A stretch of DNA of 40,431 nucleotides. Origin: Candidatus Sericytochromatia bacterium. GTDB lineage: Bacteria; Cyanobacteriota; Sericytochromatia; S15B-MN24; UBA4093. The stretch lies in NCBI GenBank assembly GCA_036676985.1, contig JAKFBU010000015.1, forward strand, positions 1 through 40,431, in the 5' to 3' direction. Numbering within the stretch: position 1 is the stretch's first letter; each line of letters begins with the position of its first letter. Below, piece by piece: positions 2 to 39,118 of the stretch. Under the pieces are notes generated by a model. The model saw only the letters and a program-made list of their open reading frames with translations, had not been told where the DNA came from and searched no databases. The position numbers were made by a program, and so were the translations under genes.

Positions 2-2908
2 CAGGTCCGCAACATCGCCCACGTCACCACGGCCGTCGCCAACGGCGACCTCTCGCAGAAGATCACCGTGGACGTGCGCGGGGAGATCCTGGAGCTCAAG
101 AACACCATCAACACCATGGTCGATCACCTGCGCGCCTTCGCCTCGGAGGTGACGCGCATGGCCCGCGAGGTGGGCAGCGAGGGCAAGCTGGGCGGACAGG
201 CCTACGTCAAGGGGGTGTCCGGCACCTGGAAGGACCTCACGGACACCGTCAACCTGCTCGCCGACAACCTCACGGTCCAGCTGCGGGACGTGTCCAAGGT
301 GGCCACGGCGATCGCCAAGGGCAACCTCTCGCAGAAGATCACCGTGGACGTGCGCGGGGAGATGCTGCAGATCAAGGAGACCATCAACACCATGGTCGAC
401 CAGCTCTCGCGCTTCGCCGACGAGGTGACCCGGGTCTCGCGGGAGGTGGGCACCGAGGGGCGGCTCGGCGGCCATGCCCTGGTGCCGGGGGTCGCGGGCA
501 CCTGGAAGGACCTCACGGACAGCGTCAACATGCTCGCCGACAACCTCACGGTCCAGCTGCGGGACGTCTCCAAGGTGGCCACGGCGATCGCCAAGGGCGA
601 TCTCTCCCGGAAGATCACCGTGGACGTGCGCGGCGAGATGCTGCAGATCAAGGACGTCATCAACACCATGGTCGATCAGCTCTCGCGCTTCGCCGACGAG
701 GTGACGCGGGTGGCGCGGGAGGTCGGCACCGAGGGCCGGTTGGGGGGACAGGCGCAGGTCAAGGGCGTGTCGGGCACCTGGAAGGACCTGACGGACAGCG
801 TCAACCTGCTGGCCGGCAACCTGACCTCGCAGGTGCGCGCGATCGCGGAGGTCTCGACCGCCGTCGCGCAGGGCGACCTGAGCCGCACGATCACCATCGG
901 GGCGCAGGGCGAGGTCTCCGAGCTCAAGGACAACCTCAACCGGATGATCGCCAACCTCCGGGAGACGACCGAGAAGAACACGCAGCAATCCTGGCTGAAG
1001 ACCAATCTCGCGCGGTTCTCCCGCCTGTTCCAGGGTCAGAAGAGCCTCGAGCAGCTCTCCCGCCTCTTGATGACCGAGCTGCCGCCGGTCGTCGAGGCGT
1101 CGTACGGCGCTTTCTACTTGCAGGAGGCCGAACAGGACACCCCGATCCTGCGCCGCATCGACGCCTACGCCTCGCACGAGGGTACGAACCTGCCGGATCG
1201 TTTCAAGCTGGGGGAGGGCCTGGTGGGGCAGGCCGCGCGCGATCGCCGGCCCATCCTGCTCAAGCAGGTGCCGGGCGACTTCATGCGCATCGCCCTGGGC
1301 CCGGGGGCTGCCCCGCCCGTCAACTTCGTCGTCCTGCCGGTCGTCTTCGAGGGTGAGGTCAAGGCCGTCGTCGAGCTGGCCTCGTTCCAGCCCTTCAGCC
1401 CGATACACCTCTCCTTTCTCGATCAGCTGATCGAGAGCCTGGGGGTGGTGCTGAACATGCTGGCGGCCGACACGCGCACCGCGGCCCTCCTGGAGGAGCT
1501 CAGGCGGTCCAACGCGGAGCTCGGGGCCAAGGCCGGAGAGCTCGAGGAGAAGGCGAGTCAGCTCCAGGCGACGAACAAGGAAGTGGAGCTCGCCTCGGTC
1601 TCCCTCGAGGAGCGTGCCGAGCAGCTCGCCCTCGTCTCGCGCTACAAGTCCGAGTTTCTCGCGAACATGTCGCACGAGCTCCGCACGCCGCTCAACAGCC
1701 TCCTCATCCTGGCCAGGCTCTTGGCCGAGAACAAGGAGGGCAACCTCGATTCCAAGCAAGTGGAGTACGCCACCACCATCGTTGCGGCGGGTTCCGACTT
1801 GCTGTCGCTCATCAACGAGGTGCTCGACCTGTCCAAGGTCGAGTCCGGCAAGATGCCGGTCGACGCCCACCTCTCCTCGCTCTCCGCGTTGCGGGACTAC
1901 GTGCGGCAGACCTTCTGCCCGATCGCCCAGCAAAAGGGCGTGGACTTCACGGTCGACCTCGACCCGGATCTGCCCGAGGCGATCTGCACCGATGGCGAGC
2001 GCCTGAAGCAGGTGCTGCGCAACCTGCTCGCGAATGCCTTCAAGTTCACGGAGGAAGGCCGGGTGACGCTGCACGTCGGCTGGGCCCCGGAGGGAGGCGC
2101 GTTCGAGAGCGAGACGTTGCGGAGGTCGCCCCGGGTGTTGGCCTTCGCGGTCACCGACACCGGCATCGGCGTTCCCGCGGAGAAGCATCAGCTCATCTTC
2201 GAGGCCTTCCAGCAGGCTGACAGCACCACGAGCCGCAAGTACGGCGGCACGGGTCTCGGCCTCACCATCAGCCGCGAAGTCTCCGGGCTCCTGGGCGGCG
2301 AGATCCACGTCGAAAGCGAGCCTGGTCGGGGGAGCACCTTCACCCTCTACTTGCCGCAGACCTTCGACGTTCCCGACGGGGAGCCGGATCTCTTCGCCTA
2401 CGGAAGCCGAATCCAAGCCCCTGGCCACGTGAGCTTCGCCCCTGGCCCGCCGCCGGCCGAGCCTCCGGCCGTCGCTCCGGCGGTGCCCGAGGCGCCTTCT
2501 TGCTCGCCGGACGACCTCCTGTCGGGCAAGACCCTTCTGGTGGTGGAAGACGACATGCGCAGCCTCTTCGCCATGACCAGCCTGCTCGAGCGGAAAGGGG
2601 CCAAGGTGATCTTCGCCAATTCCGGCCAGGACGCCCTCGACCTGCTGGCGAAGCACCCGGAAGTGGACCTGGTGCTGATGGACCTCATGATGCCCGGCAT
2701 GGACGGGGCGGAGACGGTGCGGGCCATCCGCCACATGCCCGGCTTCCAGGAGTTGCCGATCATCGCGCTCACCGCCAAGGCCATGAAGGGCGATCGCGAG
2801 AAGAGCCTCGCGGCAGGAGCCTCGGACTACATCACCAAGCCCGTGGATGCCGAGCTCTTGCTCTCGATGCTGTGCGCGTGGCTCGAGCCGTCGCTCCGGA
2901 CGAGGTAA
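2..2908 (+). CDS. Hybrid sensor histidine kinase, poly-HAMP-GAF-HisKA-HATPase-REC (5'-truncated by window edge)
   Basis: Frame is open from base 2 ([22 protein letters not shown]). 92-aa HAMP repeats (GTWKDLTD motif), H-box [15 protein letters not shown]-box [11 protein letters not shown]-boxes DTGIG and GGTGLGL, C-terminal receiver (VVEDD, LMDLMMP, YITKP). Confidence 0.95.
68..830 (+). repeat. Intragenic tandem ~276-bp repeats encoding poly-HAMP units
   Basis: GTGGACGTGCGCGG recurs at 68, 344 and 620 (276-bp period, 92 aa). Confidence 0.9.
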
Positions 2909-15137: not shown

Positions 15138-16109
15138 GTGATCGTGCGCTTGAGGCAAAGGGCTCCGTGGCTCGCGCTCGCGTTGACCATGTCCATGCTG
15201 CTCGGAGGCTGCGGGATGACCGGGACCTCCGGTGTCGGCTCCTCACAGGGCGCCTCGTTCGGCGTGCTGGGGCAGTTGCCCTTCCAGCGCCTGGACCCGG
15301 TTCCGGTCCATGCGCAGCGCTTTCCGGCCCGTATCATCGCTCACCGCGGCTTTTCCGGCCGCTTCCCCGAGAACACGATCGCGTCCATCCGTGGCGCCGT
15401 CCAGGCGGGGGCCGATCTCGTGGAGATCGACGTCCAGCTCACCAAGGACGGCGAGCTCGTGGTCTTGCACGACGACACCGTTGATCGCACCACCAACGGC
15501 AAGGGGGAGGTCAAGGCCCTCACCCTGCAGGAGATCCGGGCCCTGGATGCCGGCGTCAAGTTCGATGCGACCTTCACGGGCGAGCGCGTGCCCACCCTCG
15601 AGGAGGCCCTCGACGCCGTGCGCGGCGGCGCCATCCTCAATATCGAGGTCAAGGGTATCGAGCAGGCCGGTATGCGGCCGGTTGTGGCCAAGAAGATCAA
15701 AGACCTCGTCGAGCTGAAGAACTACGGGCCGCACGTCCACCTCATGTCCTTCGATGAGGCGTTCATGCAGGAGATGCGCCAGCAAGCTCCCACCTGGAGC
15801 ATGGGGCTCCTGGGGGTCGCCGACCCGTTCAACCTGAAGCTCAAGCAGGCCCAGAAGCTCAAGATGGACGGCCTGCACCTCCTGCACAAGGCCGTGAGTG
15901 CCGACGAGGTCTTGGACATCCATAGGGCGGGTCTGAGCACCCACGTCTACACCGTCAACCGGCCGGGCTCCATGCTCAAGGTCCTGCGCCGGGGCGTGGA
16001 CGGGGTCATCACCAACCACCCGGACCTCGCCGGGACGGTCATGGAGACGCATTTCAGCGGTAAGCCGCTGCCGACGTTGCCGGAGCCTCTGGACGAGGAC
16101 ATCGACTAG
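15138..16109 (+). CDS. Glycerophosphodiester phosphodiesterase (GDPD) family lipoprotein
   Basis: Lipobox LGGC; IAHRGFSG.FPENT, VEIDVQLTKDG..VVLHD, NIEVK, VYTVN, GVDGVITNHP. Confidence 0.93.
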   Translation: MIVRLRQRAPWLALALTMSMLLGGCGMTGTSGVGSSQGASFGVLGQLPFQRLDPVPVHAQRFPARIIAHRGFSGRFPENTIASIRGAVQAGADLVEIDVQLTKDGELVVLHDDTVDRTTNGKGEVKALTLQEIRALDAGVKFDATFTGERVPTLEEALDAVRGGAILNIEVKGIEQAGMRPVVAKKIKDLVELKNYGPHVHLMSFDEAFMQEMRQQAPTWSMGLLGVADPFNLKLKQAQKLKMDGLHLLHKAVSADEVLDIHRAGLSTHVYTVNRPGSMLKVLRRGVDGVITNHPDLAGTVMETHFSGKPLPTLPEPLDEDID

Positions 16110-16243: not shown

Positions 16244-16283
16244 AAAGAGAGCGGCCGATGTTCCGGCCGCTCTCTTTGTTTCT
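16244..16283. terminator. Bidirectional intrinsic terminator
   Basis: AAAGAGAGCGGCCG / CGGCCGCTCTCTTT stem between convergent genes. Confidence 0.8.
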
Positions 16284-17983
16284 TACCGCTTGTTCCGTCG
16301 GAGCCTCAGGTAACCGAAGATTCCCAGGTAGGCCACGCCGTACACGCCCGCCTCGCCCGCACCCTGCAGGGGGTTGGCCGGCGCGCCGCCCGGCAAGTTG
16401 CAGCCGCAGCCGGGGCCCACACCCGCCAGCTTCTCGGCCGCGCTCACCGCACTCGCGACCGAGGCGAACTGGTTGAGGAGGTTCTGGATCTGCTGGCGGT
16501 TGTCCTGGACGACCGTGCCGACATCGATGGGGTTCAGCTGCTCGACCACCATGGCCGTCGGCATGTCCGGCACCGAGACGGGCCGGGCGCGGGTCACGGC
16601 AAAGGTCGTTCCGTCCTTGAGCTTGATGCGGACGGGAGCCTGCGCGGTGGTCAGGTGGGGGCTGCAGAGGATGGTGGCCTCGGCCGTCCGTACGTTCGAG
16701 ACGTCCGGGAGCCCCGTGTTGTAGTCGAGGATGGGGTCCACCGTCATTTCCTCGGCCGACATGGTCGTGTAGAAGCGGGTGAGGTAGGGCACCTGGCCGA
16801 AGGCCTGGTGCGCCTTCACCAGCGGCTGGACGAAGACGGTGTTCAGCTCGTCCTTGAACGCCTGTGCCTGCTCGGCGGTCATGGCCTGCTGAGCGAGCTG
16901 GGACTGGTAGTTCCACATCATGTTGTAGAAGTCGGTCTCCGAGACCTGCCCCTGCAGCGAGTCGGGCATGGGGATGTGGCGCTTGAGGACGGCCTGGAGC
17001 TGTGGGCCCCGCGGGAACGCCTGGTTCTGGATGTGGAGGAAGGCGCTCCACGCGTTGGTGACGCCTTCGAGGCCGCTCAGGTTGTAGTTGGAGACGAGCG
17101 CCGGCTGGATCGTGCTGCTCTTGGCGGCGATGTCCGTGACGAACGCGCGCCCTCCGCCCTCATCGACGGCCCTGGACACGAGGTCGTTGTAGTTGCGGCC
17201 GCCGCCGAGCCAATCGATCAGGGCCTCGTTGACCTGGACATGGCGATAGTTAGAGGGGATGGCGCGCCCGGGCCCGAGCACGTAGACGGTGATGGGCATG
17301 TTGGGCCGTGCGGCGATCGAGGTCAGGATCAGGGGTACGCAGGGCTCGTTGGAGTTGTACGAGAAGACGATGGGCGCGAGGTCGCCCGTGTCGCGATCGC
17401 GCCGCAGCCGCAGGGCGATGAAGTAGTTGTCCTTCTTCACGTAGGTCTTGGTGACCTCGTCGAAGCGCGGCGGGATGGTGTAGTGGTTGTCCGTGAGCCA
17501 CGTCTGTAGCTCGGCGACCGTGTCGGCCTTGAGGATGGCCGAGTCGTAGGGGCCTATGACCTGTTGCGACACGACCGTCACGCCGGCGGCCTTGTCGACG
17601 GCCACGGTACCTTCCGCCATGGGCATGGCCAGGAACGTGTTCCCATCGGTCTTGCAGCTGCCCTCGGGGTTGGTGAACTGCAGCTGGTACCGCACCTGGG
17701 TCGCGGGCTCGAGCCGCGAGAAGATCTCGTCCGAGCCCACCGACAGGGTCGGCAGGGCCGGCACGGGCACGACCCACGAGAAGTCCTCGGCGCTGCCCTG
17801 ATACTGGATCTGGACGTAGGCCGTGAGCTTCTGGGGCTCGACCAGGAAGAGGATCTTCTCGCCCGACTGGTCGATGGGCGCCGTGGCGCAGAAGAAGCCC
17901 CCGCAGGCGCTCGCGGCGAGGCCCAGGGGGCCTCCGACGAGCAAGACGCACATGAGAAGTAACGCGGACAGGCGAGAGGACAC
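16283..17983 (-). CDS. DUF2330 domain-containing exported protein with a C-terminal GCGC-TM-basic tail
   Basis: Signal peptide then ACGGFFC, IDQSGEKILF, QIQYQG.AEDFSWVVPVP, IGPYD, WL.DN.Y, PCVPLILT, YLTRFYTTMS.EEMTVDP. Confidence 0.85.
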   Translation of the reverse strand: MSSRLSALLLMCVLLVGGPLGLAASACGGFFCATAPIDQSGEKILFLVEPQKLTAYVQIQYQGSAEDFSWVVPVPALPTLSVGSDEIFSRLEPATQVRYQLQFTNPEGSCKTDGNTFLAMPMAEGTVAVDKAAGVTVVSQQVIGPYDSAILKADTVAELQTWLTDNHYTIPPRFDEVTKTYVKKDNYFIALRLRRDRDTGDLAPIVFSYNSNEPCVPLILTSIAARPNMPITVYVLGPGRAIPSNYRHVQVNEALIDWLGGGRNYNDLVSRAVDEGGGRAFVTDIAAKSSTIQPALVSNYNLSGLEGVTNAWSAFLHIQNQAFPRGPQLQAVLKRHIPMPDSLQGQVSETDFYNMMWNYQSQLAQQAMTAEQAQAFKDELNTVFVQPLVKAHQAFGQVPYLTRFYTTMSAEEMTVDPILDYNTGLPDVSNVRTAEATILCSPHLTTAQAPVRIKLKDGTTFAVTRARPVSVPDMPTAMVVEQLNPIDVGTVVQDNRQQIQNLLNQFASVASAVSAAEKLAGVGPGCGCNLPGGAPANPLQGAGEAGVYGVAYLGIFGYLRLRRNKR

Positions 17984-18148: not shown

Positions 18149-20026
18149 CTACTGGAGCCACTGGAACTGGACGTCCCCAACGAAGTGCTGGGACCGGTTG
18201 TTCAGGACGCGCGCCCGGACCGTATCCGAGTCGCTGACCTTGCGGGCGCCGTAGTTCGTCACCGTGAAGGTCATGTTGTCGTAGACGCCCGGATCCAGGT
18301 TCTCGTTGGCCGGGACGTTGATGACGACGGGCGACGTCTGGGTCGGGTTGATGGGCAGGGGCAGAGTGCCCGCCGCGGGGTTCGGCAGCTTCAGGGGGAA
18401 GGACTGAGCAAACGCCTGGGTGTTGGTGAGCGAGCTGGTCCGAATGCTCTCCGAGGCGATGATCGGTCCACCCGTGCGCTCCAGGTAGACCCAGGTCTTG
18501 GTGCCGTCGGCCGGATCCGTCAGGAACTTCAGGGTGTAGGCATGGTTGCCCACGCCGAAGTTGCCCCGGTTGGCATCCCAGATCCAGAAGGGCACGTCGA
18601 GGCGAGTCATCCGGATGGGGCTGTCGCCGCCGCCCGACATGGTCGCCGAGTAGGTGGCCGCCGTGGTGATGGGGCCGGGGGCCGTGCTGCCCTGGGTGTA
18701 GGTGCCGGATCCGCTGACCGTGCCGATCGTCCGGCCCGGCAGCATGAAGGGATTGGTCAGGGTGCGCGGGTCGGGGCTCGTCGAGTAGCCGACCACGGCG
18801 TAGTCCATGGTGATCCCCGCGTTGGCGAGGCGCACGGCCGCGAGGCTCTGCTGGTTGACGCTCGGGACGTTGCCCGCCACCAGGTTGCCGTAGGTGTCGC
18901 GCAGGTCGTAGTAGACCGTCGCCGTCTGGTTTGGAGAGACGTGGGCCGTCGAGCCATAGAAGCGCGAGGCGGAAATGTCGGCAAGCGCCGGCCAGACCGC
19001 GATGCGCGGGGCGTTGGCGTAGTTCGTCGTGTAACCGTTCTCGCTCACGGCCTGACCGCGGGCGAGCCACAGGCGCCAGGCCGCAGGGGCGGAGTTGACG
19101 GCCCCGATGGTGGCCCGGGTCGGCGTGAAGCTGACGGTCGAGGCCGTGGTGTCGATGGCCGGAGCGTAGGGGTGCAGGCTCGCCGAGCCCACGTCCGCGA
19201 TGCCGTTCGACAGCGTGAAGCCGCTCGGATCCGAGAGCGCCACCCGATCGGAGGCCTGGACGTTGGCGATGTCGCTGACCGGCAGGGAGACGGCCTCACC
19301 GGCGGTCACCTCGCGGGTGCTGGACCAGAGCCCATCGCCCCAGCGCGGGGCCTGGCGCACGTTGACCGTGACGGTCGTGGTGGAGCCGGGGTTGATGGAC
19401 TGGGTCGCGCCCCCCAGGCCGAAGCCCGCGTTGGTGGTCGAACTGTCCGAGCGCAGGGACCAGGGCAGCACGTCCGCGGCGTTCAGGTTCGCCGGCGCGA
19501 ACACCAGGAAGTTGGAGTTGCGGTTGCCGCTGATGACCCGGATCTCGGTCTCGTCCGCATCGAAGGCGTCGTCCGCATCCCCGTCGAGGAAGAAGACGTC
19601 GCGCAGGCCGTCGAACTTGACGGGGCCCGCAGCGCTCAAGAGGCGCTGGTGGCTCGTACGCACCGTGAGGGTGAAGGTGCCCGGCAGGACGTTGAAGAAG
19701 GTCACGTTGACCGAGCCCGCCGACCGCGAGGTGTTGAGGTAGGCGTTGCGGACCACGTACTGCACGCTCTCGTTGCCCAGGCTGTCGCGCAGCCGGACCT
19801 CGACGGTGTTGATGTAGGCGTTGCTGTAGGCGTACTGGACGCCGCGGTCCTCACCGAGGGCCGGCATGTTGAGGGGCACGACGATGTTGCCCTTGGCCTC
19901 GTGGCGGATGACCTGGGTCTGGGCATCGCTCATAGCGAGCGAGCTTGCGGGGGGATGGGCGGCACAGCCGGCGACCAGCAGGGTAGCGGCCGCGATCGCC
20001 CCGTAGATTCGAAGGAACTTGCTCAT
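18149..20026 (-). CDS. Large beta-rich surface lipoprotein (625 aa), unknown family
   Basis: RBS GGAGG, lipobox VAGC, Thr/Val/Asn-rich beta-sandwich-like composition, acidic loop DGDADDAFDADE. Confidence 0.85.
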   Translation of the reverse strand: MSKFLRIYGAIAAATLLVAGCAAHPPASSLAMSDAQTQVIRHEAKGNIVVPLNMPALGEDRGVQYAYSNAYINTVEVRLRDSLGNESVQYVVRNAYLNTSRSAGSVNVTFFNVLPGTFTLTVRTSHQRLLSAAGPVKFDGLRDVFFLDGDADDAFDADETEIRVISGNRNSNFLVFAPANLNAADVLPWSLRSDSSTTNAGFGLGGATQSINPGSTTTVTVNVRQAPRWGDGLWSSTREVTAGEAVSLPVSDIANVQASDRVALSDPSGFTLSNGIADVGSASLHPYAPAIDTTASTVSFTPTRATIGAVNSAPAAWRLWLARGQAVSENGYTTNYANAPRIAVWPALADISASRFYGSTAHVSPNQTATVYYDLRDTYGNLVAGNVPSVNQQSLAAVRLANAGITMDYAVVGYSTSPDPRTLTNPFMLPGRTIGTVSGSGTYTQGSTAPGPITTAATYSATMSGGGDSPIRMTRLDVPFWIWDANRGNFGVGNHAYTLKFLTDPADGTKTWVYLERTGGPIIASESIRTSSLTNTQAFAQSFPLKLPNPAAGTLPLPINPTQTSPVVINVPANENLDPGVYDNMTFTVTNYGARKVSDSDTVRARVLNNRSQHFVGDVQFQWLQ

Positions 20027-20062
20027 ACGTATTGAAACCTCCAAAAAGGCAATCGTTGCGCG

Positions 20063-21208
20063 CTAGGGGTTCACGTTGCCCGTCTCATCCCCGCTGTAGG
20101 CGGGCATGTTGACGGGGCTGTCGACCGTGCCCGTGTTGATCAGGGGCATGTTGACGTTGATCGAGGCCGTGCTGTGGCGGTCGGTGGTCGTCAGCGTGAC
20201 GGCCGCCGTGATGCTGCCCGACCGGGCGGTGATGACCGCGGTGCCCGGCCGGTAGGCGTAGACCATGCCGTCCTGGGTCACGAAGGCCACCGCGGGGTTG
20301 GAGCTCGACCAGGTGAGGATGGGGTACGAGAGCGTCGGCGAGGCGTCCAGCGCGAAGGCCTGGAGGTTGCTCGTGGCGTCGTACCACTCGCCCACCGCGC
20401 GGGTCACGACCATCGGCTCGATGACCATGCGGTCGACCGCATAGAAGTTGCCGACGAAGACCTCGATGCCGTCGACCTTGAGCCAGACCTTGGGACGTCC
20501 CGTGAGGCCCTGCGGCACGGTGACGAGCAGCTTGTCCTGCTCGGGGTCCTGCATCTGGTTGACGCCCGTGTAGGTGTCGGCTTTGCGGCGGCTCAGGATC
20601 TCGACGTTCGGGGACTTGACCCGGGTGCGGTTGTCCCAGCCGAACCAGACCTCGACCGTGTCGGCCGAGACGACCGGACGGTTGAAGAAGCGCACGGTGT
20701 CGAGCGTGAACTGTGAGCCGATGCCGCCCGCCGAGGCGGACATGGCGCCGTAGGTGGGCGCCTGGGCCACGAGGGTCATGGAGAGGTCCGTCTTGAGGTT
20801 CGTCTTGATGACCACATTCGAGGACGAGCCCATGGCCGTGGGGACGCTCAGGGCGGTCGGGTTGATCTCTCGGTAGGCCCGCGCCTCGAGGGTGTAGGTG
20901 CCGGCCCGCAGGCGCAGGTTGGCGACCTGCATGTCACCCTCCGAGCGCCGGAGGACCAGCGTGCCCGCCTCGCGGCCGAGGCTGTTGAAGGCCTGGACGA
21001 TGAGGGTGTTGGCGCTGAGCGGGATGGCCTGGGTCGAGCGCTCCGGCCAGCGGATGCGCACCTCGACGTTGCCGTACTCGGCGGTCTGCACGCTCATGGC
21101 GGGCGGGGTCGTGCCGCCGGAGGTCGTCTGGAACGGGACGCCCTGGCACCCTAGCGCGAGGGCTGCGAGCCCCGTCAGGGAGAGGGCCAGGAAGGATTGT
21201 GGCTTCAT
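20063..21208 (-). CDS. Lipoprotein with a C-terminal bacterial Ig-like (Big_2) domain
   Basis: Lipobox ALGC; LTWSSSNPAVAFVTQDGMVYAYRPGTAVITARSG is a typical Big_2 pattern. Confidence 0.85.
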   Translation of the reverse strand: MKPQSFLALSLTGLAALALGCQGVPFQTTSGGTTPPAMSVQTAEYGNVEVRIRWPERSTQAIPLSANTLIVQAFNSLGREAGTLVLRRSEGDMQVANLRLRAGTYTLEARAYREINPTALSVPTAMGSSSNVVIKTNLKTDLSMTLVAQAPTYGAMSASAGGIGSQFTLDTVRFFNRPVVSADTVEVWFGWDNRTRVKSPNVEILSRRKADTYTGVNQMQDPEQDKLLVTVPQGLTGRPKVWLKVDGIEVFVGNFYAVDRMVIEPMVVTRAVGEWYDATSNLQAFALDASPTLSYPILTWSSSNPAVAFVTQDGMVYAYRPGTAVITARSGSITAAVTLTTTDRHSTASINVNMPLINTGTVDSPVNMPAYSGDETGNVNP

Positions 21209-21216
21209 GGCGCCTC

Positions 21217-21747
21217 CTACTTCAGCTCGAGCGAGAGCTTGCCGTCGTTGCGCAGGACGACGGAGGTCGTCGCGACGATCGTCGGGTCACTCTTGAGGCG
21301 GGCGGTGATGAGGATGGTGCCGCTGGTCCCGGGATCCACCGACCGGATCCAGCCGGTGTGGTCGACCGCCACCAGCTCGGGGTTCGAGCTGATCCAGTCG
21401 AGGTCGGTGGCGGCGGTGCGGTTGCCGGCCTCGTCCATGAAGCTCGGCCACAGCCTGGCGGTGGTGGGATAACCCGCCACCTCGCGCTCGGAAAGCGCCG
21501 CTTCGGTCTCGGACTGGTAGCCGCCGTAGCTGTACGGGGCGTTGAGCTCGACGCTCGTGGGGTCGAGTGCGAGGCTCGCAACCTTGGGAGCGGGCGTTGG
21601 CGTCGCCTGAGACTGGACGCTCGTGGTCCCGGTGCCTGTGGTGCCGGTTCCCGAGGTGCCGAGCGGATTCTGTTGAAGCGCAGTGCAGCCTGCCACGGCC
21701 ACCAGGAGGCCAATCAGGGCCATCCGGCGCGGAATTTTGCGAATCAT
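21217..21747 (-). CDS. Lipoprotein with a single Big_2-like Ig domain
   Basis: Lipobox VAGC, Thr/Gly/Pro linker, LDWISSNPELVAVDHTGWI...GTILITAR. Confidence 0.82.
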   Translation of the reverse strand: MIRKIPRRMALIGLLVAVAGCTALQQNPLGTSGTGTTGTGTTSVQSQATPTPAPKVASLALDPTSVELNAPYSYGGYQSETEAALSEREVAGYPTTARLWPSFMDEAGNRTAATDLDWISSNPELVAVDHTGWIRSVDPGTSGTILITARLKSDPTIVATTSVVLRNDGKLSLELK

Positions 21748-22022
21748 CCGCCATCCTTTCCCCCGCGATCGGGGCGTTGGGTAGAGGAACGGGTCGAGGG
21801 ATCGTCAGCGATCGCCTGCTACGCGTAGCCCCGTCTCTGTCCTCCGGGAGTTGGCGACAGGTGGCGGAAAGAAGCAGTCAAGCGGCGCTCAAAGTAGATT
21901 AGAGGACGATTGAGTGCTAGTCAATTCATGGGGGGACGCATGAGGCAATGTTCGGGCGGCGGACGGGCGGGTATGATGGTCCAAGCGCCCCCACCGCCGA
22001 CCCGAGAGCAGGAGCCAGGTCC

Positions 22023-22241
22023 GTGCAGCCGACGCGTTCCCCGATCCGACCCAAGGTCTTCGTGCCGCTCGTCGTGATGACGGTCGCCACGATCGCCGTC
22101 CTGGCCGCCTGCACTCCCTCCGGCCTGCCGTCGCAACCCCCGGGGACCGCCGGGACGCCCGGCACCACTTCCGAGGCCACGAGCAGCACGCCGGCGGCGA
22201 CGAGCTCCGCCGGCAACGTGGTCCCCGTCATCAACTTCTGA
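22023..22241 (+). CDS. Tiny lipoprotein (72 aa): signal, lipobox, S/T/P/G linker, terminal strand GNVVPVINF
   Basis: RBS AGGAG before GTG at 22023; lipobox LAAC; stop overlaps the next start (TGATG). Confidence 0.68.
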   Translation: MQPTRSPIRPKVFVPLVVMTVATIAVLAACTPSGLPSQPPGTAGTPGTTSEATSSTPAATSSAGNVVPVINF

Positions 22242-22603
22242 TGCGGCCGGACGAGGCCTGGCGTGCGGGCCGAGCGGCCTACGAGCGCGGGGACTACTTC
22301 GAGGCCCACGAGCACTGGGAGGCCGTCTGGCGGGCGGCTTCTTCTTCCGAGCGCCGGGGCTATCAGGGCCTCATCCAGCTCGCCGCGTCCTGCTACAAGC
22401 TCCAGCACAACGAGCTTCGTCCCGCGCGAAAGCTGCTGAGCCGGGCGATCGCGGCCTTCGAGGCGACGTCGTCCTTGCCCGAGGTGGATGTGACGGCGCT
22501 GGCGTCCGCTGCCCGGGACCTCGGGCGTCGCCTGGACGACCTGGGGCCCGCTTTTGCCTTCGACCCGAGCTGGGTGCCGCGTCTTGGGCCGGAGCGGGCT
22601 TGA
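22241..22603 (+). CDS. DUF309 family protein
   Basis: GDYFEAHEHWEAVW...YQGLIQLA signature. Confidence 0.9.
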   Translation: MRPDEAWRAGRAAYERGDYFEAHEHWEAVWRAASSSERRGYQGLIQLAASCYKLQHNELRPARKLLSRAIAAFEATSSLPEVDVTALASAARDLGRRLDDLGPAFAFDPSWVPRLGPERA

Positions 22604-22655
22604 CCGACGGTGCTGGGCTCGCTACAAAGGTTCATGCGCCCCCAAGGAGGACACG

Positions 22656-22799
22656 ATGCCCCGGGACGTCCAACCCCTCGTCACGTCGGACGGCAAGCGG
22701 ATCTACGTCTGCGACCTGTGCAGCACCGTGATGCTCGATTTGCACTGCAAGCTCGTTTGCCAGTCGTGCGGCTACAAGCGGGACTGCTCGGATCCCTAA
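22656..22799 (+). CDS. Cys-rich zinc-finger microprotein (HVO_2523-like pattern)
   Basis: 47 aa; RBS AAGGAGG; CDLC...HCKLVCQSCGYKRDCSDP. Confidence 0.8.
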   Translation: MPRDVQPLVTSDGKRIYVCDLCSTVMLDLHCKLVCQSCGYKRDCSDP

Positions 22800-38894: not shown

Positions 38895-38967
38895 GGGGCT
38901 GTAGCTCAGTTGGTAGAGCGCTTCAATGGCATTGAAGAGGTCAGGAGTTCGATTCTCCTCAGCTCCA
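38895..38967 (+). tRNA. tRNA-Ala (GGC), CCA not encoded
   Basis: Acceptor GGGGCTG/CAGCTCC-A with G3:U70, D-arm GCTCAGTTGGTAGAGC, anticodon arm CTTCA-ATGGCAT-TGAAG, T-loop TTCGATT. Confidence 0.97.
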
Positions 38968-39043
38968 CTTCCCCGAAGCGACTGGGATCGTTAACCATCC
39001 CTTGATCTTTTCATCGGCTTCGATTAAACTAAATAGTGTTCCT

Positions 39044-39116
39044 GGGGTTGTAGCTCAGTTGGTAGAGCGCTTCAATGGCATTGAAGAGGTCAGGAGTTCG
39101 ATTCTCCTCAGCTCCA
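39044..39116 (+). tRNA. tRNA-Ala (GGC) second copy, CCA not encoded
   Basis: Identical to 38895-38967 except C5 to T. Confidence 0.96.
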
Positions 39117-39118
39117 CT

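Follow-up and report, generated by a model that had tools for sequence, protein, structure and literature searches.

A conserved four-lipoprotein module in Sericytochromatia and its proposed assembly by beta-strand complementation

Introduction

Can lipoproteins outside the class Bacteroidia be joined to one another by passing a C-terminal beta-strand from one subunit into the next? The question is raised by four lipoprotein genes on a 40,431-nucleotide (nt) stretch of DNA, here called the window, from a Candidatus Sericytochromatia bacterium (GenBank assembly GCA_036676985.1, contig JAKFBU010000015.1, positions 1 to 40,431). Three of the genes lie in a row and encode proteins of 176, 381 and 631 amino acids (aa), to which we refer by these lengths; the fourth is divergent and encodes a mini-lipoprotein of 72 aa. 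An earlier note on this DNA, made from the sequence alone, read the locus as a surface filament built by donor-strand exchange. On balance we think it probable that the four genes form a conserved module whose products join head to tail by beta-strand complementation and form a short hetero-oligomer with lipid anchors rather than a long pilus.

The Fim and Mfa pili of Porphyromonas gingivalis, which are type V pili, have an anchor (FimB/Mfa2), a stalk (FimA/Mfa1) and tip and adaptor subunits (Mfa3-5). Type V pili are said to be confined to Bacteroidia and to be the only case so far in which lipoprotein subunits are assembled by donor strands (PMC13655056; this source and PMC5789003 are cited for the excerpts consulted). 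As at our locus, their subunits are lipoprotein precursors, and the first strand after the lipidated cysteine is embedded in a beta-sandwich N-terminal domain (PMC13655056, PMC5789003). Two further likenesses are proposed here: the C-terminal strand or strands of a neighbour replace that first strand, and the donor subunit that keeps its lipid is the anchor, the distal subunit having no free donor (PMC13655056, PMC5789003).

Gene organization and conservation

The four lipoprotein genes are real. The open reading frames (ORFs) bear out the three-gene lipoprotein operon and divergent 72-aa lipoprotein of the earlier note (Table 1), and each of the four products starts with positively charged residues, continues with a hydrophobic stretch and then has a lipobox (VAGC, ALGC, VAGC and LAAC), from which export and lipidation of all four may be expected. 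The lipobox cysteine is invariant in two of the three family alignments of the large proteins and nearly invariant in the third. The 176, 381 and 631 ORFs are tightly packed on the minus strand; the stop codon of the first and the ATG of the second are 8 nt apart, with GGAGG in between. Pfam finds a single family among the four proteins, Big_2 in the 381-aa protein, and an NCBIfam search of the four recognised no family.

A 631-like gene occurs in 11 of 41 related genomes. By family the counts are 6/9 in f1, 1/1 in f2 and 3/8 in f4; none was found in f3 (0/8) or in the rest of the class among these genomes. For comparison we took ten loci picked solely by a match to the 631-aa protein, so that the presence of 176-like and 381-like genes played no part in the choice. 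The earlier note had looked to synteny in related genomes, and the order 176-like, 381-like, 631-like is indeed kept in all ten loci, always with the 176-like gene immediately upstream of the 381-like gene. The same genome supplies one of these loci, a paralogous triad on contig C33 (18213-21753). Close homologues carry the names Candidatus Sericytochromatia bacterium, Cyanobacteria bacterium UBA8530 and compost metagenome in their sources, a cluster look-up of ten family members returned a name for one only, and the metagenomes that contain DNA of the locus are from soil and groundwater.

An AlphaFold2 (AF2) model of the 381-aa protein has a mean predicted local distance difference test score (pLDDT) of 77.3 and consists of three beta-sandwich domains followed by an unstructured tail: an N-domain (residues 44-150), an IPT/TIG-like domain (149-259), a Big_2 domain (258-343) and a disordered C-tail (343-381). 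These assignments come from a VIA-align fold comparison against 48,161 PDB representatives, in which residues 258-343 matched the Big_2 domain of LigA (8gyr; Z 13.0, root-mean-square deviation (rmsd) 1.5, 83 residues aligned) and residues 149-259 an IPT/TIG fold (Z 9-10). Pfam agrees on Big_2 (PF02368), which matches residues 299-340 with 26.1 bits at a cut-off of 22.8; 20 of 22 family members have such a match. In the 631-aa protein, modelled by AF2 with a mean pLDDT of 82.2, an N-domain again comes first, followed by an IPT/TIG-like domain (225-345) and, at 346..625, an Ig-like domain that carries a large insertion (VIA-align, numbering of the 625-aa form). An ESM Atlas search with this insertion (420-605) gave no usable match.

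That the 381- and 631-aa proteins have an N-terminal domain in common, as the earlier note had said, is correct, and the relationship is weak by sequence. BLASTP aligns the two N-domains at an expectation value (E) of 2e-4 with 26% identity over 111 aa, hhalign aligns the two families at E 6.5e-4 with a probability of 27.6%, and the strand order at the start is the same in both AF2 models. In each protein the N-domain opens with a strand, here strand 1, that is modelled less confidently than what surrounds it in the 381-aa protein (residues 45-53, pLDDT about 61-68 vs 81-91 in the rest of the domain). In the 631-aa protein strand 1 corresponds to residues 46-54 of the 625-aa model, with a pLDDT of about 70, and is followed by a loop below 50.

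From the 176-aa to the 381-aa protein

The 176-aa protein has no Pfam match; BLASTP relates it to the Big_2 domain of the 381-aa protein (E 1e-4). At the C-terminus its family carries an extra strand beyond the last Big_2 strand. In the window this strand is RNDGKLSLELK, and N167, D168, G169, K170, L171 and E174 are invariant in the 18 sequences of the family.

A natural gene fusion indicates where the strand belongs. In genome G018 a 176-like and a 381-like gene are fused in frame to encode P0023, a protein of 503 aa as deposited. The 176-like part is complete to its final residue (...VRPDGRIEAEIK; ...DGRIEAEIK) and is followed by GFPASAASLVIRAF..., which are the residues after strand 1 in the 381 family. 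Missing are a stop codon and the signal peptide, lipobox, linker and strand 1 of the 381-like part; at the DNA level the junction is clean and keeps the frame. By nature's own fusion, then, the 176 strand of P0023 stands in the place of strand 1.

The 176/381 pair was picked for co-folding because its alignments were deeper and the fusion had made a sharp prediction. The input was residues 58-150 of the 381-aa protein, with strand 1 left out, and residues 50-176 of the 176-aa protein, with family alignments supplied. The truncated N-domain and the 176 terminus, a pairing that the earlier note had proposed to co-fold, reached a score of 0.77 (runs 0.77, 0.77 and 0.76), and the best of three controls reached 0.00. 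Of 80 solved complexes 58 attain the pass mark, as do 2 of 110 mismatched pairs; this calibration is only rough when alignments are supplied by the user, and such a score is no demonstration of binding inside a cell. Contacts agreed between runs to at least 95%, and the pLDDT of the partner was at least 86.

In the co-fold, residues 168-172 of the 176-aa protein contact residues 98-102 and 137-142 of the 381-aa protein with an expected error of 0.5-0.6 Å. Since the strand touches both flanking strands, it is predicted to be inserted and not added at the edge of the sheet. Other loops of the 176-aa protein at the interface are the conserved NAPYS (69-73), 88-95 and 139-142. Invariant residues are enriched at this interface (15/26 vs 5.9 expected, p 1.2e-5), also when the tail is set aside (9/15 vs 3.0 expected, p 2.5e-4), an overlap that is not fully independent of the model because the co-fold was given the alignments. 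Together, the complex model and the natural fusion support a 176 strand that takes the place of the first strand in the 381 N-domain.

From the 381-aa to the 631-aa protein

The C-tail of the 381-aa protein has no secondary structure in the monomer model (pLDDT 44-61). It holds two strand-like elements, and the second is a copy of strand 1 of the 631-like protein of the same locus in all ten loci, including three paralogous triads whose proteins are about 30% identical. Tail and strand 1 read GTVDSPVNMPAY and GNIVVPLNMPAL in the window, GAVSVPLEIPAY and GSVVVPLTLPAL at L009, GPVEVPLSIPTY and GDVTVPLTLPAI at L011, GDVTTSIGIPAY and GTVTVPIAMPAL at L012, TEVSVPIDLPSA and GALTVPVTLPKL at L016, and GTVGVPINLPSA and GSLAVPVTLPKL at L017.

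We counted these motifs in a crude set of 4502 ORFs of this genome. The 8-residue core occurs 38 times, five times within the last 30 residues of an ORF, and two of these five ORFs are the 381-aa protein and its paralogue. A strict form of the 631 strand-1 motif occurs in only two ORFs of the genome, the 631 gene and its paralogue on contig C33, both with a 381-type gene directly upstream. The conserved mimicry thus supports, from sequence, a 381 tail that would sit in the 631 N-domain in place of strand 1.

The 631-aa protein offers no strand in turn. The last strands of its 625-aa model (600-609 and 612-623) have a pLDDT of 91-97 and close the Ig-like domain of the same protein; therefore they are not free, and we ruled out the 631 C-terminus as a donor. 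The earlier note had seen a strand similar to strand 1 at the C-termini of all four proteins and had let a neighbour's C-terminal strand replace the first. The recurrence stands for the 176-aa protein, the 381 tail and the mini-lipoprotein, and is dropped for the 631-aa protein; the replacement is kept for the 176-to-381 step (co-fold and fusion) and for the 381-to-631 step (mimicry), and given up for the 631-aa protein as donor.

The mini-lipoprotein

In the mini-lipoprotein a signal peptide and the lipobox LAAC are followed by a Pro-, Thr- and Ser-rich linker, and the C-terminus is a single conserved strand, GNVVPVINF. The ORF has a G+C content at third codon positions of 0.93 and an alternative start, an ATG at 21948 that would give 97 aa. 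A mini-lipoprotein gene lies beside six of the seven orthologous loci with enough flanking DNA (the flanks of L002 were too short for scoring). It is divergent from the 176-like gene in the window and at L009, L010 and L011; at L013 and L014 it follows the 631-like gene directly, in the same orientation. These orthologues were missed by tblastn and found by a pattern, an ending in G-x-V-x-P-[VI]-[IV]-x-[FL]; the patterns used found none at the fusion locus L012 or at the paralogous loci L015-L017. Two regular-expression scans of this genome found no further copy besides that in the window.

What is conserved in the mini-lipoprotein is the lipobox cysteine and the last strand only, and the linker varies between genomes. 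Invariant in six sequences are C29, G63, V65 and P67 (G-x-V-x-P). Searches of Pfam and NCBIfam returned no family; the entry 'invert_tail' appeared in one of the six at E 0.024-0.027, over the signal and low-complexity part. We know of no described counterpart of such a one-strand anchor, and a literature search found none. The earlier note had cast the 176- and 72-aa proteins as anchors, and this fits their make-up. Because the gene is linked to the 631-like gene at L013 and L014, the acceptor of its strand is most likely the larger 631 N-domain.

At the paralogous loci L015-L017, where no mini-lipoprotein gene was found, the 381-like tails end in ...APGNLPV(I/S)SDP, which resembles the mini-lipoprotein strand. 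It is speculation from this likeness that these tails may incorporate the strand for which the orthologous loci have a separate gene.

Proposed assembly

The assembly that we favour would begin with the export and lipidation of each protein. The strand NDGKLSLELK of the 176-aa protein would then enter the 381 N-domain between the strands at 93-102 and 137-142, in the slot of GNVEVRIRWP, and the 381 tail would likewise replace strand 1 of the 631-aa protein, as its mimicry suggests. The 631-aa protein would be the distal subunit and end the chain, because it has no free C-terminal strand. The mini-lipoprotein, with its lipid anchor, flexible linker and single strand, would add a further anchored donor strand. 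The displaced first strands could be removed by proteolysis, as happens in type V pili, or simply be pushed aside. What we infer here, rather than observe, is the displacement or cutting of strand 1 in the cell, the 381-to-631 and mini-lipoprotein steps, and the location and function of the complex.

If this assembly is true, the building logic of type V pili is present in unrelated proteins of non-photosynthetic relatives of the cyanobacteria, and donor-strand logic is able to yield defined hetero-oligomers instead of polymers. An anchor would need no more than a lipid, a linker and a single strand. For the large and so far uncharacterised lipoprotein family described next, the assembly would offer a first clue to function.

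The wider N-domain family

A profile of the N-domain, a domain without a Pfam family, matched 258 cluster representatives (E up to 0.001) out of 1.84 billion. Among the 86 listed matches of up to 950 aa, 64 have the motif G-x-h-x-h-x-h-x-[W]-P (h, hydrophobic) near the N-terminus; 62 of these 64 also have a lipobox, 57 have the W and 39 a basic residue before it. In a sample of 151 genomes of the phylum the N-domain occurs in 19, all in three families of the window's order: 9/9 genomes of f1, besides the window's own, 8/8 of f4 and 1/1 of f2. It was found neither in f3 (0/8) nor elsewhere in the sample. The profile matches 14 times in this genome and 23 times in G018.

Behind the N-domain stand NHL or Kelch propellers or adhesive domains. 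Since many lipoproteins with such different distal domains begin with it, the N-domain appears to be a general module for the docking of diverse payloads. Further N-domain lipoprotein operons in the same genome lie on contigs C23 (4279-9580), C4 (131122-136209 and 8881-10593), C33, C1, C30, C56 and C74.

Several of these operons obey the same rule: a gene whose product ends in a strand is followed by one whose product starts with an N-domain. On C23, ...DGDINLEVN precedes GWLNLTIRWP and ...LGDLELEIE precedes GTLSLTVRWP; a further case is found in genome G007. In this genome, four of nine upstream neighbours of N-domain genes end in G-x-h-x-h-x-h-x, compared with 19 of 4493 other ORFs (odds ratio 188, p 6e-8; here, as for the core motif above, the statistics overstate the case because paralogues are not independent). 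N-domain lipoproteins without an N-domain gene directly downstream (on C1, C30 and C56) end at the ordinary last Big_2 strand.

It is conceivable, and we put it forward tentatively, that this reflects a lineage-wide mode of lipoprotein assembly in which an N-domain socket of the G-x-h-x-h-x-h-R-W-P type swaps its lipid-bearing first strand for the C-terminal strand of the protein encoded directly upstream, gene order is assembly order, and a one-strand anchor is used. On the same tentative footing, such a system would be the first outside Bacteroidia; it may have arisen on its own or be very distantly related to the strand exchange of type V pili.

Comparison with known systems

Among single-domain PDB matches, the 381 N-domain (44-150) most closely resembles the N-terminal domain of the type V tip pilin Mfa3 (5nf4_B, 34..191; Z 8.8, rmsd 2.6, 98 residues aligned; 5nf4_A, Z 8.7 in a second pass over the top 1000 Foldseek chains). 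Since the Mfa3 alignment begins at residue 34, it includes the cleavable first strand. Other matches are a rhamnogalacturonan lyase domain (Z 8.3), a secretin pilot protein (Z 8.1) and two Bacteroides proteins with the titles 'putative cell adhesion protein' and 'putative adhesin' (3up6_B, Z 8.0; 4qdg_B, Z 7.9), which we take to be of the fimbrillin type. Because a Z near 8 may, as the fold tool cautions, reflect just a common arrangement, we treat the likeness to Mfa3 as a resemblance only. The 631 N-domain matches 3up6_B with a Z of only 6.5.

Language-model neighbours of the N-domain are Mfa2, DUF4493 and DUF5119 (scores 0.79-0.81), a lead only. Pfam returned nothing significant at E up to 10 for the N-domains of 22 sequences (DUF4493 once, E 0.13), and matches in sequence and profile searches of the PDB were confined to the Big_2 and Ig-like domains.

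Several differences separate the locus from type V pili. Its proteins have no sequence relationship to type V subunits, which consist of two transthyretin-like domains; here the N-domain is followed by IPT/TIG and Big_2 domains in the 381-aa protein or by IPT/TIG-like and Ig-like domains, the latter with its insertion, in the 631-aa protein. The self-matching stalk subunit of type V pili is not seen at the locus, which makes a defined hetero-oligomer more likely than a polymer, and neither a conserved Arg/Lys loop site like theirs nor, among the genes of the window, a gingipain-like protease was found. The host is a relative of Sericytochromatia and not a member of class Bacteroidia. The genome, rated 100% complete, has no match to PF06321 (P_gingi_FimA) or PF08842 (Mfa2), and the control was positive in Bacteroides thetaiotaomicron. 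By sequence and architecture the proteins are not members of FimA/Mfa; that the locus works like type V strand exchange we consider probable. Of the fold check against type V pilins that the earlier note had proposed, the resemblance to Mfa3 is thus what stands, and membership by architecture or sequence is not.

In chaperone-usher pili (Fim/Pap) too, the next subunit contributes the strand that an incomplete Ig-like fold lacks. There the donor is an N-terminal extension, the missing strand is C-terminal, and assembly depends on a periplasmic chaperone and an outer-membrane usher; unlike the proteins here, the subunits are not lipoproteins. Neither PapD_N (PF00345) nor Usher (PF00577) was found in this genome rated 100% complete, and the controls were positive in Escherichia coli. 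Engineered single-chain 'self-complemented' pilins are a laboratory counterpart of the fusion P0023.

Tandem Ig-like domains (Big_2, IPT/TIG) are also what the locus has in common with intimin/invasin, Leptospira Lig and the S-layer proteins SbsC and Sap. These are single long chains on a beta-barrel, an SLH domain or one lipid anchor, whereas the locus divides the chain among subunits that are lipidated separately and have matching terminal strands. A full-text literature search, which did not extend to subscription papers, found no such system reported for Cyanobacteria or Sericytochromatia.

Alternative explanations

A first alternative, in line with the earlier note, is a true type V-like pilus. 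In such a pilus a protease would cut after strand 1 of the 381- and 631-aa proteins, the 381-aa or another subunit would polymerise, and the 176- and 72-aa proteins would be the anchors. All four proteins are lipoprotein precursors, the N-domain resembles that of Mfa3 with its first strand included, and a donor strand sits in a groove in the 176/381 co-fold. The details of strand 1 and of the tail can be read the same way. Mfa3 has the anchoring residues L38, V40 and A42 followed by the cleavage residue R43 (PMC5789003), to which V48, V50 and I52 followed by R53 compare in the 381-aa protein; the residue before WP is basic in nearly the whole 381 family (R 18/21, H 2/21, L 1/21), and the two strand elements of the 381 tail recall the two donor strands of Mfa1 (PMC13655056). 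We nonetheless find such a pilus very improbable. The 381 tail matches strand 1 of the 631-aa protein and not its own, so no subunit is seen with a donor that fits its own groove and could polymerise by itself; nothing indicates a long homopolymeric pilus. The earlier note had proposed cleavage near an R-x-x-Q motif, which the 381 and 631 family alignments rule out as a conserved site: the loop Arg is present in 9 of 21 sequences of the 381 family and 25 of 29 of the 631 family. The two-transthyretin-domain architecture is absent, as are FimA/Mfa2 family genes from the genome and a protease gene from the operon and the window. A genome search for Peptidase_C25 gave no match, and is uninformative because its control was equally silent.

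The same linkage and conservation would apply to a hetero-complex held by sheet contacts without any exchange, in which first strands and lipids are retained and the proteins form a membrane lattice or patch; similar strands could pair together. That neither a cleavage site nor a protease was found agrees with it, and the high conservation of strand 1 and its WP suits a permanent structural role. P0023 stands against it, being a protein without strand 1 that has the 176 strand instead. In the co-fold the donor lies between two strands and not at a free edge (strand 1 having been removed beforehand), and the mini-lipoprotein offers one strand only, which fits the filling of a slot better than a lattice. 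We regard this complex as quite unlikely. Also unlikely, to a somewhat lesser degree, is that the four proteins are co-expressed but independent envelope lipoproteins, adhesin-like or S-layer-like, with terminal motifs that are ordinary strands or sorting signals. Foldseek matches of the whole 381 and 631 models are indeed just generic multi-Ig surface proteins (S-layer proteins, intimin, LigA), with no fimbrillin among the matches listed; alternating strands are common, and the 631 C-terminus is merely part of its own domain. Independence is harder to square with a co-fold that passes while all controls score 0.00, with invariant residues enriched at the predicted 176 interface, and with a tail that copies strand 1 in 10/10 loci, the paralogues at about 30% identity included. 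Nor would it account for a mini-lipoprotein whose only conserved part is one strand, or for a strand added after Big_2 in proteins encoded directly upstream of N-domain genes.

Several points weigh against the head-to-tail complementation that we prefer. All evidence is computational. Strand 1 was deleted before co-folding, so the model indicates that the slot accepts the 176 strand; that the filled groove is the slot of strand 1 and that strand 1 leaves it in the cell are presumed. The 176 strand resembles strand 1 of the 381-aa protein merely in a pattern of alternating hydrophobic residues after Gly, which is common, and the fusion is known from one metagenome-assembled genome. The WP-bearing strand 1 is the best-conserved part of the family, unlike the discarded strands of type V pilins, which are poorly conserved (PMC13655056). 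No conserved cleavage site was found, and no protease among the genes of the window. For the 381-to-631 step the evidence is mimicry and linkage, and the same two lines carry the mini-lipoprotein step. The fold-score caution, the statistics that overstate the case and the partial dependence of the interface statistics, given above with their numbers, count on this side too.

Features of the locus and its surroundings

The coordinates of all features are collected in Table 1.

Table 1. Features of the lipoprotein locus and of its surroundings, in window coordinates unless a contig is named.
Feature	Position	Strand	Description
176-aa lipoprotein gene	21217-21747	-	ORF; Big_2-like domain and extra C-terminal strand; proposed anchor subunit
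176 donor strand, RNDGKLSLELK	21220..21252	-	Residues 166-176; proposed donor
381-aa lipoprotein gene	20063-21208	-	ORF; N-domain, IPT/TIG-like, Big_2 and C-tail; proposed adaptor
381 strand 1 and WP motif, YGNVEVRIRWP	21044..21076	-	Residues 45-55; proposed exchangeable anchor strand
381 C-tail	20066..20182	-	Residues 343-381: STASINVNMP, then GTVDSPVNMPAY, then SGDETGNVNP; proposed donor strands for the 631 N-domain
631-aa lipoprotein gene	18149-20044	-	ORF (625 aa from ATG at 20026); proposed distal (tip) subunit
631 strand 1, GNIVVPLNMPAL	19856..19891	-	Residues 52-63 (631 numbering); proposed anchor strand copied by the 381 tail
Mini-lipoprotein gene	22026-22241	+	Divergent ORF, 72 aa from GTG at 22026; proposed lipid-anchored donor strand (second anchor)
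Natural fusion P0023	G018 contig C71, locus L012, 7777-9360	-	176-like and 381-like genes fused in frame
GDPD gene	15138-16109	+	Glycerophosphodiester phosphodiesterase
DUF2330 gene	16283-17983	-	Neighbouring gene
DUF309 gene	22241-22603		Neighbouring gene
Small ORF	22554-22799	+	81 aa
tRNA-Ala(GGC), first copy	38895-38968	+	Tandem pair
tRNA-Ala(GGC), second copy	39044-39117	+	Tandem pair

The remaining genes of the window are housekeeping and signalling genes, with no secretion, pilus or protease genes among them. The DUF2330 and DUF309 genes were considered as parts of the module and rejected: neither lies beside the triad in any of the ten related loci, and the same holds for the GDPD gene, so that none of the three is a member. 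The DUF2330 protein (Pfam E 2.3e-36) has an N-terminal signal and a CGGFFC motif, and its gene lies 166 nt downstream of the 631 gene. The GDPD protein (E 2.4e-55) has a lipobox-like N-terminus, LLGGC.

The two copies of tRNA-Ala(GGC) are separated by 75 nt. Between the DUF309 gene and a rhodanese gene, the small ORF encodes a protein with cysteine pairs (CDLC...CKLVCQSC) that resemble a zinc ribbon.

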